A stretch of 64,000 nucleotides of DNA from the NCBI RefSeq assembly GCF_000026545.1, contig NC_011601.1; one strand, 5' to 3'. The notes under the pieces were generated by a model. That model had not been told where the DNA came from. It was given only the letters and a program-made list of their open reading frames with translations, and searched no databases. The DNA is from Escherichia coli O127:H6 str. E2348/69. Lineage in GTDB: Bacteria; Pseudomonadota; Gammaproteobacteria; Enterobacterales; Enterobacteriaceae. Positions 57,434 to 62,330 of the stretch are shown here, piece after piece (position 1 is the first letter of the stretch; every line of letters starts with the position of its first letter). The position numbers and the translations under genes are program-made.

Positions 57434-58366
57434 ATGGACAACGACAAAATTGATCAACACAGCGACGAAATTGAAGTTGAGAGCGAAGAAAAAGAGCGCG
57501 GTAAAAAAATAGAAATAGATGAAGACCGACTCCCCTCCCGGGCGATGGCAATTCATGAGCATATCCGCCAGGATGGTGAAAAAGAGCTGGAACGCGACGC
57601 AATGGCGCTACTGTGGTCAGCCATTGCGGCGGGCCTGTCGATGGGCGCTTCGCTACTGGCAAAAGGGATATTTCATGTCGAACTGGAAGGCGTGCCGGGC
57701 AGCTTCTTGCTGGAGAATCTCGGTTATACCTTTGGTTTTATTATCGTCATAATGGCCCGCCAGCAATTATTTACCGAAAACACCGTAACTGCGGTACTAC
57801 CCGTCATGCAAAAACCGACAATGAGCAACGTCGGCTTACTTATGCGGTTATGGGGCATCGTGCTGCTGGGTAATATTCTCGGGACAGGTATTGCTGCGTG
57901 GGCATTTGAATATATGCCTATCTTCAATGAAGAAACTCGCGATGCATTTGTCAAAATCGGCATGGATGTGATGAAGAACACCCCCAGCGAGATGTTTGCC
58001 AACGCGATCATTTCCGGCTGGCTGATCGCCACTATGGTATGGATGTTTCCTGCAGCGGGTGCGGCAAAGATTGTGGTGATTATATTGATGACCTGGCTTA
58101 TTGCCCTGGGTGACACCACTCACATCGTTGTCGGTTCTGTTGAAATCCTCTATCTGGTGTTTAACGGTACGCTGCACTGGAGCGATTTCATCTGGCCCTT
58201 CGCACTACCTACTTTAGCGGGGAACATCTGCGGCGGCACCTTTATCTTCGCGTTAATGAGTCATGCACAGATCCGTAACGACATGAGCAACAAGCGCAAA
58301 GCAGAAGCACGCCAAAAAGCAGAACGTGCGGAAAACATTAAGAAAAATGATAAAAACCCGGCATAA
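57434..58366 (+). CDS. yfdC: Formate/nitrite transporter-family inner-membrane protein
   Basis: 310-aa polytopic ORF. Confidence 0.88.
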   Translation: MDNDKIDQHSDEIEVESEEKERGKKIEIDEDRLPSRAMAIHEHIRQDGEKELERDAMALLWSAIAAGLSMGASLLAKGIFHVELEGVPGSFLLENLGYTFGFIIVIMARQQLFTENTVTAVLPVMQKPTMSNVGLLMRLWGIVLLGNILGTGIAAWAFEYMPIFNEETRDAFVKIGMDVMKNTPSEMFANAIISGWLIATMVWMFPAAGAAKIVVIILMTWLIALGDTTHIVVGSVEILYLVFNGTLHWSDFIWPFALPTLAGNICGGTFIFALMSHAQIRNDMSNKRKAEARQKAERAENIKKNDKNPA

Positions 58367-58441
58367 ATGGTGAGGGTTTAAGCAATCGAGCGGCAGCGTA
58401 CTTACCCCGCAGTCCATTAGCGGGTATACTCATGCCGCATT

Positions 58442-58516
58442 GTCCTCTTAGTTAAATGGATATAACGAGCCCCTCCTAAGGGCTAATTGCAGGTTCGATT
58501 CCTGCAGGGGACACCA
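58442..58516 (+). tRNA. argW: tRNA-Arg (anticodon CCU)
   Basis: gtcctcttagttaaatggatataacgagcccctCCTaagggctaattgcaggttcgattcctgcaggggacacca: cloverleaf with CCU anticodon loop, T-arm GGTTCGATTCC, no encoded CCA. Confidence 0.9.
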
Positions 58517-58677
58517 TTTATCAGTTCGCTCCCATCCGTACCAGTCCGCAAAATCCCCTGAATATCAAGCCTTACGTATATTCACGGTTCGTCATGGTTC
58601 GCGTCAGATCGTTGACAGCCGCACTCCATGACGGGTAAAAAGTGGATAAAATAATTTTACCCACCGGATTTTTACCC

Positions 58678-59835
58678 ATGCTCACCGTTAAGCAGATTGA
58701 AGCAGCAAAGCCGAAAGAAAAACCATACCGCCTACTCGATGGTAATGGCCTGTACCTTTATGTCCCTGTATCAGGGAAAAAGGTATGGCAGCTTCGCTAC
58801 AAGATTGACGGTAAGGAGAAAATCCTGACTGTCGGAAAATATCCGCTTATGACTTTGCAGGAAGCAAGGGATAAGGCATGGACTGCGAGGAAAGACATCT
58901 CGGTTGGCATCGATCCGGTAAAGGCGAAAAAGGCTTCGTCTAACAACAATTCATTTAGTGCGATTTACAAGGAATGGTACGAGCACAAGAAGCAAGTCTG
59001 GTCAGTAGGCTATGCAACTGAACTTGCCAAAATGTTTGATGACGACATTTTACCCATCATCGGCGGTCTTGAGATTCAGGATATTGAGCCGATGCAACTG
59101 CTGGAAGTAATCCGCAGATTTGAAGATCGCGGTGCAATGGAGCGAGCCAACAAAGCCCGCAGAAGATGCGGCGAGGTTTTTCGTTACGCTATTGTCACCG
59201 GAAGGGCTAAATATAACCCGGCACCTGACCTTGCAGACGCCATGAAAGGATACCGCAAGAAGAACTTCCCGTTCCTTCCAGCAGACCAGATGCCTGCATT
59301 CAACAAAGCACTGGCAACATTTTCAGGAAGTATCGTATCGCTCATTGCGACAAAAGTTTTACGTTATACAGCCCTAAGAACGAAAGAGCTTCGTTCCATG
59401 CTATGGAAGAACGTCGATTTTGAAAACAGGATTATCACCATCGACGCCAGTGTGATGAAGGGACGCAAAATTCATGTGGTCCCGATGTCAGACCAGGTGG
59501 TTGAACTTCTCACTACGCTAAGCTCAATCACCAAACCAGTCTCAGAGTTTGTTTTTGCCGGGCGCAACGATAAGAAGAAGCCAATCTGCGAGAACGCGGT
59601 ATTGCTTGTGATCAAACAAATCGGCTATGAAGGTCTGGAAAGCGGTCACGGATTCAGGCATGAATTCAGCACGATTATGAACGAGCACGAATGGCCTGCT
59701 GACGCTATTGAAGTGCAACTGGCACATGCCAACGGCGGATCTGTGCGTGGGATTTACAACCATGCTCAGTATCTCGATAAACGCAGAGAAATGATGCAGT
59801 GGTGGGCGGACTGGCTTGATGAAAAGGTAGGGTGA
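58678..59835 (+). mobile_element. intS: P4-family tyrosine integrase (phage integrase)
   Basis: N-terminal arm-binding domain and C-terminal catalytic domain (R...HGFRH...Y), directly downstream of tRNA-Arg; start set at MLTVKQIEAA (ORF track begins 36 nt upstream). Confidence 0.9.
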
Positions 59836-60065
59836 TCGACCTTAACAACTATCGAATAGCACAAAGACTTGCGGGCCAGTGCAAGGCGTTCTGTGTCTCA
59901 GTTTTGTCTAAGTGTTCTACTAAAACATAGTAAAATCGGTAACGGCTGGAAATCATTCAATACTCGCACTATCGAAAGTTCGCCAGCCAGCCGCAGCACG
60001 TTCTTGCATACGACGTGGCTGCGGCTTCCAACATTAGACAAATAACTCTTTAAATTGCTTTTAAA

Positions 60066-60281
60066 TTATTTCGTTTGAATGCCAGTAACAGGAAATCGTT
60101 TATATAGGGTTGATAGCCCAACGTTATAGATACGTGCAACATAACGCCGCGATTTCCCTGCCGCTATGAGCGCTCCCATCTGTTGCCACTGCTCGTCGCT
60201 AAACTTCGGTCTACGCCCACCAATCCGGCCTTTGGATCTGGCAATAGCCAAACCAGCTAAAGTTCCGGGATGACAGGCCAG
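60066..60281 (-). pseudogene. Remnant of a Gin/Pin/Hin-family serine DNA invertase: C-terminal HTH domain only
   Basis: ...GRIGGRRPKFSDEQWQQMGALIAAGKSRRYVARIYNVGLSTLYKRF matches the invertase C-terminus; frame opens only from 60281 and the ORF-track Met is a TTG; no catalytic N-terminal domain. Confidence 0.75.
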
Positions 60282-60625
60282 TTAACATGCTCAGGGTCGG
60301 TTGTTACATCAACAGCCTTAACCTGATTCTTATATAAAAGCCACGCCGAAAGTTTAGCTCTGTTGGCATCGCTGATTTCACCCAGCATCAGCTCTGTGCG
60401 CCAGTCGAGCATAATTGCATCAGCGGCGGACAGTAATCGCTGTCGCTCATTTTCAGCAGCCTGGATGAGTTGTTCATGAGTCGGTGGGGGATTAATAATT
60501 TCCATAGCCTCACTTCTGGTGATTGGCACAAGCCCTTCTTTGATAAAAGCATCCTGTGTGCCATACGCATCGTAGGCATATACGACGTTATTTTCATCTT
60601 TGTAATACTTCATCATTGTTATCAT
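60257..60625 (-). CDS. Phage tail-fibre assembly (chaperone) protein, short form
   Basis: 122-aa ORF with the conserved Tfa C-terminal motif (...[20 protein letters not shown]); directly downstream of the tail-fibre gene. Confidence 0.75.
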
Positions 60626-61668
60626 TTTTTATCCACCTCTGCCCAGGTAACATCTGACACAGTTCCTGAAAACTGCCGCACGACATAGGTCGCACCGGCA
60701 GGAACCATGAATGCGATAGTTGCTCTGTGCCCTGCAAGATTTGTTGTCTGATTGCCGCGAAAATTAGCCAAATTACCATCCATATTAACGTCGGCGCTCA
60801 GAAATGAACTACCGTCAGACATCACCGCATTGACGCTTACAAATATGGCGAAAGACTGGCTGTTGGTGTATACGACACCGAGATTTCTAGATTTCATTCC
60901 GCATTGACCAAACAACCCTTTCATATCTGAGTAGTTTTGTGATGCAGCAAGTGATGATGCGGCAACACCAGATTCTGTTGATGTTCTGGAATCAGATACG
61001 CGGATAATTCCCTTGTTTGTAGTGGTTGCATCATTAGTCTTGCCTTGCAGAGCTACAATATCCGCATAATTCATCGCTGCCGCTTTTGCTGTTGCAGCAA
61101 GCGTTTCAGATTCGGATACCCTTGATGATGTAAGTTGAACAATTCCTTTCTGTGTCGTAGTTGAATCCTGAGTTTTGTTTTGCAAAGATTTTATGTCCGT
61201 ATAGTTTTGCGCGACAGCATTAGCTGTGGCTGCAATATCCTCTGCACCCGATACCCGCGATGACGTTAACCGGACTAAACCCACCTGTGTTGTTGATGCG
61301 TTTTTAATACCAAGGTTTTCGAGAGCCGTTTGCACAGTGCCATCCGATTTGATATCGCCAAACGGATTCTTGCGGCTCAGGTATTCAACAGCAAACCCCG
61401 ATCCCAGCAATTCAACAAAACCGGGCAGATCACCATTATCAAGCACATCCCGTTGCGTTTTATCACTTACAAACTGGGCCAGAGCTGCAGCAATAAAGCT
61501 GGCCTGCCGAATAACCTTATTGACTTGCGCACTGGATGCTTTCCCTGCTGTAAATCCGGATATAAGCGCAGGCAACGCTTCCCATTCCTCCTGCGACATA
61601 ACATTGGCATTTCGATCAGTTGCAAACGCTTTAAAGTCATTTTTCGCCATCAGAGTAATACTCCCCAT
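60622..61668 (-). CDS. Phage side tail-fibre protein with three tandem fibre repeats
   Basis: 348-aa ORF; three ~43-aa repeats ([16 protein letters not shown]...[15 protein letters not shown]) characteristic of tail-fibre proteins. Confidence 0.85.
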
Positions 61669-62330
61669 GCCCCTACATCAAAACCACTGATGAATTCGTT
61701 ATCCATATCAAAACCAAAAAATTTAGAGCCTTCCGATGGAGTTTCCACCGAAGGTGTTTCAATGCCCCCCGCCCATACCCCGGCGGCTTTTACTGTTAGA
61801 TACCCCTGTTTAATTGCCGCAATTAACTCACGCGATACATCTGAAATATCAGTATCAGGAAAGACCCAGACCGATATCGTCATGTCCTGGTTATCGACTA
61901 TCTGCATTCGCAGCCCGGATCCTGCTGTTGCCGCGTCAAGAATTGCCGGAAGCGAATCATTCCGTCCGTCCCAGTTATTAATCGCAATCTTCGCTTTAAG
62001 AATGACACGATAAGTTTCATCGCTGAGATACATGTATCCTGAATCAGGATCGTATGGTCCCTGCCATACCCCCTGATCATATCCAAGCCCGTCGGTATCC
62101 CAGCTGAAATAGACACCTGAGATAGGCTGGCTGACAACACGGCTACGTCCGATCCACAATCCAAGAATGTCAAGTTGCACACCAACCGCAGAGTCAATAT
62201 CAAATGCAGTAATCAGCCCTCTGGTGGCAGCCGCAACATCAATAAGTGGCCGGGTCATCAGATCAACATGCGCAAGAAATTTAGGTTTGGTAGCGTGGTA
62301 GTTCGTGATTAGTTCGGTGTATTTGCTCAT
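61650..62330 (-). CDS. Phage tail/baseplate protein (Mu gp48 / DUF2313-like)
   Basis: 226-aa ORF between the baseplate J-like gene and the tail fibre, as in Mu-like tail modules. Confidence 0.7.

Follow-up and report, generated by a model that had tools for sequence, protein, structure and literature searches.

A 3' fragment of a Gin/Pin-type DNA invertase gene beside a single tail-fibre cassette in the argW prophage of Escherichia coli E2348/69

Tail-fibre switches and the prophage setting

In the tail-fibre switches of Mu (G/Gin), P1 (C/Cin) and e14 (P/Pin), the constant part of the fibre, a crossover site, the variable part, a chaperone gene and the invertase gene follow one another in the same direction, and the crossover site lies in frame at an ..NLG.. 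motif. A Fis-dependent recombinational enhancer sits in the 5' part of the gin, hin and cin genes. The locus analysed here has the same order and direction and the same placement of the site, and the C-terminus of its invertase aligns with residues 123–181 of Gin; it differs from the Mu, P1 and e14 systems in an enzyme without residues 1–122, a single site, a single cassette and a different phage backbone. It is the remains of a host-range switch of the Mu G/Gin, P1 C/Cin or e14 P/Pin type.

Intact switches of closer kin are found in E. coli prophages and phages. ABWA45 (NZ_CP022154.1) carries a whole switch at the same argW–intS site and with the same baseplate gene order, in which the fibre gene and tfa point one way, Sv' and tfa' lie beyond them in the opposite orientation, and the invertase gene, encoding a 187-aa recombinase, closes the array and is again read in the fibre direction. 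The same two-cassette layout occurs in ETEC H10407, phage SKA5 and phage vB_EcoM-606R2; H10407/SKA5 is a dusA prophage with a Mu-type baseplate. ABWA45 and H10407/SKA5 share with our locus the crossover-site family, the 3' part of the invertase gene and the spacer behind it (one difference over 59930–60265), whereas their invertase is complete at 187 aa, they have two sites, and their two Sv-tfa cassettes, which lie in opposite orientations, are not the one found here.

The window, a 64,000-nucleotide stretch of the E. coli E2348/69 (EPEC O127:H6) chromosome, is identical over 59700–60800 to that chromosome and to two other assemblies of the same lineage (100%). Locally the genes run mlaA, yfdC, argW and intS, followed on the minus strand by the late end of a prophage in the order invertase-stub frame, tfa, tail-fibre gene, DUF2612 baseplate gene, baseplate J and a gp25-like gene (Table 1). 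The excisionase gene torI lies about 43 kb from intS at the opposite prophage end (E2348/69 record 1551343–1594646). The prophage is thus a full-length relative of the cryptic KplE1/CPS-53, and the locus is its late end, next to argW; of the marks of this family, argW, intS and torI are observed here. In K-12 the KplE1/CPS-53 element is a short remnant in which gtrABS separate intS from the tail-fibre genes. The E2348/69 element resembles it in its argW attachment, the adjacent intS and torI at the far end, and differs in its length of about 43 kb, its apparently complete gene set (early, lysis, head, tail, baseplate) and the invertase stub in the place where K-12 has gtrABS. Its genes include those for repressor, replication, lysis, terminase, head, sheath, tube and baseplate along with two phage tRNAs, and pseudogenes are few; the argW prophage of E2348/69 looks potentially inducible.

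The spacer behind the invertase stop holds a terminator-like hairpin on the minus strand (59885–59868), 3' of the stub. An unannotated segment just 3' of intS (59837–60024) has 86–92% identity to unannotated int-to-tail DNA of lambdoid phages, namely HK75, HK106, mEp234 and several Stx phages, and makes up a conserved int-flanking element. When Rfam was searched with 58300–61800, the tRNA alone was matched and everything else, 59837–60024 included, stayed far under the gathering scores.

Table 1. Features of the argW-proximal end of the prophage, in window coordinates
Feature	Position	Strand	Remark
Context block, argW and intS	58442–59835	+	
argW, tRNA-Arg(CCT)	58442–58516		Attachment site
intS	58642–59835	+	Prophage integrase
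Spacer, intS to invertase stop	59836–60065		Native 3' flank of the invertase gene, collinear with the intact ABWA45 locus
Open frame with invertase remnant	60066–60281	-	Homology to residues 123–187 of 187
tfa, tail-fibre assembly (chaperone) gene	60257–60625	-	Intact; PHROG 188, E 5e-28
Deletion/recombination junction	60258–60265		8-bp microhomology TAAAGTTC; three-way alignment
Tail-fibre gene, whole	60622–61668	-	348-aa open ORF
Tail-fibre variable (receptor-binding) part	60622–61311	-	LGIKN to end
Orphan 26-bp crossover (gix-like) site	61300–61325		GTTTTTAATACC-AA-GGTTTTCGAGAG; core AA at 61312–61313, inside the fibre gene
Tail-fibre constant N-terminal part	61314–61668	-	Baseplate-proximal; common to relatives with other cassettes

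The invertase remnant and its junction with tfa

The frame of the remnant is open for 71 codons below a stop at 60282–60284, and the ORF listed within it (60066–60251) begins with a TTG at 60251–60249, 5 nt past the tfa stop. As a preliminary description of this DNA had stated, the closed frame overlaps the 3' end of tfa; the overlap amounts to 25 nt in a different reading frame. Codons 1–5 (LACHP) are tfa DNA read out of frame, codon 6 (GGA, Gly) straddles the junction, and all the DNA between 60265 and the stop at 60066–60068 comes from the invertase gene; it codes for the last part of helix E, the linker and the HTH_7 DNA-binding domain. The Gin structures 3UJ3 and 4M6F match the frame with E values of 1.5e-17 and 1.1e-15 over Gin residues 123–181 of 193, a similarity to serine invertases far beyond chance; the Hin DNA-binding domain 1HCR matches with 4e-5, and PHROG 125 (“DNA invertase”) with 1.6e-16 at profile positions 143–207 of 254. 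Pfam returned HTH_7 (resolvase helix-turn-helix, E 1.7e-12), the Resolvase catalytic domain and with it the serine nucleophile (S9 in ..RVST..) being absent from the frame, and NCBIfam gave no family for any of the three proteins tested. In gamma-delta resolvase the catalytic domain comprises residues 1–101 at the N-terminus, the E helix residues 102–137 and the DNA-binding domain residues 138–183 (PMC3575834); by alignment to these domains, the stub starts only in the last part of helix E, which the linker and the helix-turn-helix follow.

All 65 residues from T123 to K187 are the same as in the C-termini of the intact 187-aa invertases of ABWA45 and H10407, and at the DNA level 199 of 200 nt agree; over 59930–60265 the one difference, at 60150, is synonymous (TCG/TCA, Ser). 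Of the gene, the first 364 nt are missing, and codons 1–122 with them. The frame therefore has the C-terminal HTH_7 domain of the small serine invertases (Gin/Pin/Cin/Hin) and descends from a full-length member, and it lacks their catalytic domain. These results bear out the earlier view that of a Gin/Pin-type invertase nothing but the DNA-binding C-terminus is left and that no catalytic domain can be made, but its term “decayed” is too strong for a stub and spacer that differ at a single synonymous position. The frame is what is left of the 3' end of a serine DNA invertase gene of the Gin/Pin family, and we infer that it has no function. It is an ordinary pseudogene of an already known kind, flagged by RefSeq/PGAP as lacking its N-terminus under the name “helix-turn-helix domain-containing protein”. 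A reading of the stub as the remnant of a transposon resolvase was dropped because it is identical to invertases adjoining invertible fibre segments.

A three-way alignment with intact loci, of the kind proposed in the preliminary description for locating the breakpoint, resolved it to eight bases. Homology to the intact invertase genes extends to 60265, homology to the cassette of E. coli 23AR0998 starts at 60258, and the overlap is TAAAGTTC, which occurs at the tfa stop in 23AR0998 and at invertase codons 122–124 in ABWA45 and H10407 (L002 9558, L006 6346). The junction joins the tfa stop codon to invertase codon 122, turning the stop from TAA into TAG without altering the tfa protein. These coordinates are read directly from the alignment; the join itself looks like a microhomology-mediated illegitimate one.

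The tail-fibre cassette and the orphan crossover site

The Sv-tfa cassette of the window (60258–61324, 1067 bp) has 97% identity to that of the P2-like prophage of 23AR0998. Its tfa and those of the P2-like prophages of 23AR0998 and Z1323HEC0011 share 99.5–99.7% identity, and the 230-aa variable part of the fibre is collinear with the intact 23AR0998 tail protein and the same at 220 of 231 positions, the shared stop counted. PGAP calls the tail-fibre gene a pseudogene (61081–61650, “incomplete, missing C-terminus”) and leaves 60626–61080 unannotated, although the ORF is open; the mosaic make-up of the gene has probably misled the annotation. Both RefSeq labels, the name of the stub and the pseudogene call on the fibre, can be improved. 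Only one set of fibre and assembly genes is left, as previously noted: there is no plus-strand fibre or tfa ORF in 59836–61700, and hence no second, opposed Sv + tfa cassette.

A crossover site remains within the fibre gene, in frame over ..ENLGIKN... Its outer half is that of the H10407 site and its inner half that of the 23AR0998 cassette. The inverted repeat of H10407 consists of two 26-bp sites, TTCTCCCAAACC-AA-GGTTTTCGAGAG in the fibre gene and TTCTCCCAAACC-AA-CCTTTCAAATAT just upstream of the invertase, and ABWA45 and 23AR0998 have equivalent pairs. A half-site matrix was built from six sites, leaving out the invertase-side site of vB_EcoM-606R2, and applied to each locus. In every locus with an intact switch, vB_EcoM-606R2 included, precisely two sites reach 22.7 bits or more, and both lie where they are expected. 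A single site, of 21.5 bits, stands out in the 64-kb window, the runner-up scoring 10.2; the score of 21.5 is partly circular, since both halves of the site occur in training sites, while the absence of a partner is not circular. When a partner was sought across the whole 46.7-kb prophage region of E2348/69, the search returned the same single 21.5-bit site and a next best of 14.4. A generic inverted-repeat search of the window gave weak pairs only (75–88% complementarity), without crossover-site-like arms. An in-frame 26-bp site that splits the fibre is thus present, and neither an inverted site pair nor two opposed cassettes were found. The matrix replaced an earlier pattern, AAACCNNGGTTT, which at up to two mismatches matches dozens of places in the window; a loose match at 60875–60886 is one of these chance hits. 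The residual site that the preliminary description anticipated does exist, but lies at its own position in Table 1 and not at 60.6–60.9 kb, where nothing was found.

The constant-part homology of five other loci starts at 61309, 3 nt from the core, which places the boundary between constant and variable parts at about 61.31 kb, and the homology breakpoints of six loci fall within 61309–61324. Cassette borders in KplE1-like, Mu-baseplate, P2-like and lambdoid-remnant prophages (L004–L010) likewise lie within a few bases of the core. This coincidence points to the crossover site, or to the conserved ..NLG.. coding block, as the point at which fibre cassettes are exchanged between unrelated phages.

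With the 5' 364 nt of the invertase gene gone, the enhancer position known from Gin, Hin and Cin is not present in the locus. Since enzyme, partner site and presumably enhancer are all missing, the segment should be unable to invert: the fibre would be locked in one form and the prophage have a fixed receptor specificity. The three independent E2348/69-lineage assemblies all have the same single orientation.

Origin of the truncation and alternative readings

The cassette, present in just 8 of 5,426 E. coli genomes, is uncommon and stands beside an intact invertase in two loci only, the P2-like prophages of 23AR0998 (L004) and Z1323HEC0011 (L013). Both carry an invertible segment with one cassette (L004 5891–7068; L013 3891–4861) and both crossover-like sites; past the tfa stop come 98 bp with a hairpin and then a gixR-like site, and the “other” fibre end is seven codons long (RFEQEE*). 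They share with the window the Sv-tfa cassette at 97–98% identity and the inner half-site, and differ by the 98-bp tail, the gixR-like site and an intact invertase that is only 63–69% identical. Inversion in these two prophages would truncate the fibre, as in either an on/off switch or a half-decayed two-cassette switch. A direct parent, with the exact cassette beside the exact invertase type, was found in none of the 5,426 genomes, so the structure before the deletion is a reconstruction, and megablast of a phage collection gave no match to the cassette. The deletion would measure about 541 bp if the parent was of the 23AR0998 type, and about 1.2 or 1.5 kb if it had two cassettes as in H10407 or ABWA45. 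With one-cassette segments as the nearest invertase-keeping relatives, a loss of roughly 0.54 kb has to be considered next to one of 1.2–1.5 kb. Certainly lost were invertase codons 1–122, the region upstream and the invertase-side crossover site, whereas there may have been no alternative cassette for this event to remove. Removal of such a cassette by the deletion is thus one possibility only, the segments of the two relatives holding one cassette and a seven-codon stub.

The same junction recurs in strain EcPF16. The prophage there is unrelated: it sits at dusA, its integrase is a different one, and it carries a DinI-like gene and a Mu-type baseplate (YmfQ, gp46, gp47). The two sequences differ at 2 positions in 730 bp (59930–60660), and their similarity ends near 59930 and near 61380. 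Across the 5,426 genomes, the junction is present in four, three of which belong to the E2348/69 lineage, making two lineages in all. It must therefore have arisen once, and recombination has carried a module of about 1.45 kb between prophages that are not related. Invertase-side SNPs do not discriminate between an origin of the junction in the argW prophage and one in the dusA prophage: ABWA45, H10407 and EcPF16 share one difference from the window, at a single position. The EcPF16 fibre lacks one 135-bp repeat unit (window 61054–61188), and its own orphan site (L003 10253–10278, equivalent to window 61300–61325) has changed from ACC-AA-GG to ATC-AA-GA and scores 13.0, one of the two core-adjacent substitutions giving fibre G120D. 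Hence the earlier statement that the switch was frozen by a deletion through the invertase gene stands as regards the locked state, with one site and no catalytic domain, but the loss need not have happened within this prophage.

We consider it very probable that a single illegitimate joining at TAAAGTTC fused the tfa stop to invertase codon 122, leaving a dead Gin/Pin 3' fragment and a locked fibre, and that the junction then moved as a module. Such a joining would have removed the catalytic domain with the serine nucleophile and most of helix E, the invertase-proximal crossover site and, if the gene was organised like gin, hin and cin, a Fis-dependent enhancer in its 5' part, together with whatever lay in between, either a stub of about 100 bp or a second, inverted Sv'-tfa' cassette. 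What would be left over is an intact tail-fibre gene, the chaperone gene and a single orphan site within the fibre gene. Without enzyme, partner site or enhancer the segment would be unable to invert, and the phage would have one fixed receptor specificity; the E2348/69 prophage and that of EcPF16 would both have inherited the junction within the exchanged module (about 59930–61380). The absence of disabling mutations in the stub fits a recent deletion and is compatible with retention too.

Other routes to the same structure have to be weighed. An Sv-tfa cassette of foreign origin, such as that of a P2-like phage, could have taken the place of the resident invertible segment in one step, with one crossover at the conserved site region (~61312) and an illegitimate one at TAAAGTTC in the invertase gene, so that the acquisition itself destroyed the switch. 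The 97% identity of 60258–61324 to cassettes in P2-like prophages and a lambdoid remnant, the right border at the crossover core, the rarity of the cassette and the lack, in the 5,426 genomes, of any locus that has it beside this invertase type would all agree with such a capture. Every cassette of the family ends at the core, however, which makes the border non-discriminating, and a deletion of about 0.54 kb in a hybrid parent gives the same junction in one event. We regard capture as possible but doubtful; by either route the outcome is a locked fibre and a dead invertase. That the invertase is truly intact and the junction misassembled across inverted repeats is effectively refuted: short-read assemblers are known to struggle with invertible segments flanked by inverted repeats, but three separate complete assemblies of the E2348/69 lineage agree with 100% identity, and the junction is found again in another prophage, in the unrelated strain EcPF16.

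It might also be asked whether the stub is a working gene, a helix-turn-helix protein of about 61 aa that is re-initiated after the tfa stop, binds crossover sites and modulates inversion in other prophages. The frame is open and its sequence unmutated, and re-initiation at the TTG so near the tfa stop is conceivable. The stub lies 3' of tfa in the late operon with the sole terminator-like hairpin further downstream, and a scan for sigma-70-like promoters in 59700–61800 returned 0 sites, suggesting that it would be co-transcribed with that operon. The isolated DNA-binding domain of Hin binds hix half-sites, and 1HCR is this domain alone (52 residues). Pin-type invertases are able to act in trans between prophages (PMC12529663), which makes a competitor consisting of the DNA-binding domain only conceivable. 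Against this stand the lack of a Shine-Dalgarno-like sequence before the TTG or any in-frame ATG, the lack of a promoter of its own in the scanned region and the restriction of the arrangement to two lineages among 5,426 genomes. Relatives with the same baseplate module have lost the invertase in other ways: PD7 (L007 2425–2688) keeps the last ~50 nt only, and FJ_Ec_21 and TUM2820 have none, a tfa' stub being kept in FJ_Ec_21 and PD7; the annotated invertase CDS of vB_EcoM-606R2 (L010 3801–4115) is just 315 nt long. Such varied, independent lesions favour neutral loss over a selected function of the stub, and we think a working gene very improbable. There is equally little to recommend the idea that a free-standing, site-binding stub could damp the invertases of other prophages, and that locked cassette and stub spread together because they were favoured.

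The importance of the locus beyond careful annotation is small. The argW prophage of the EPEC reference strain E2348/69 is predicted to have a fixed fibre specificity, which is of relevance to anyone inducing the prophage or using its fibre module. The locus also offers a clean case, resolved to the base, of the death of a host-range switch, probably through a microhomology deletion into the invertase gene, and it shows a locked cassette still travelling between unrelated prophages, with its borders at the crossover site.
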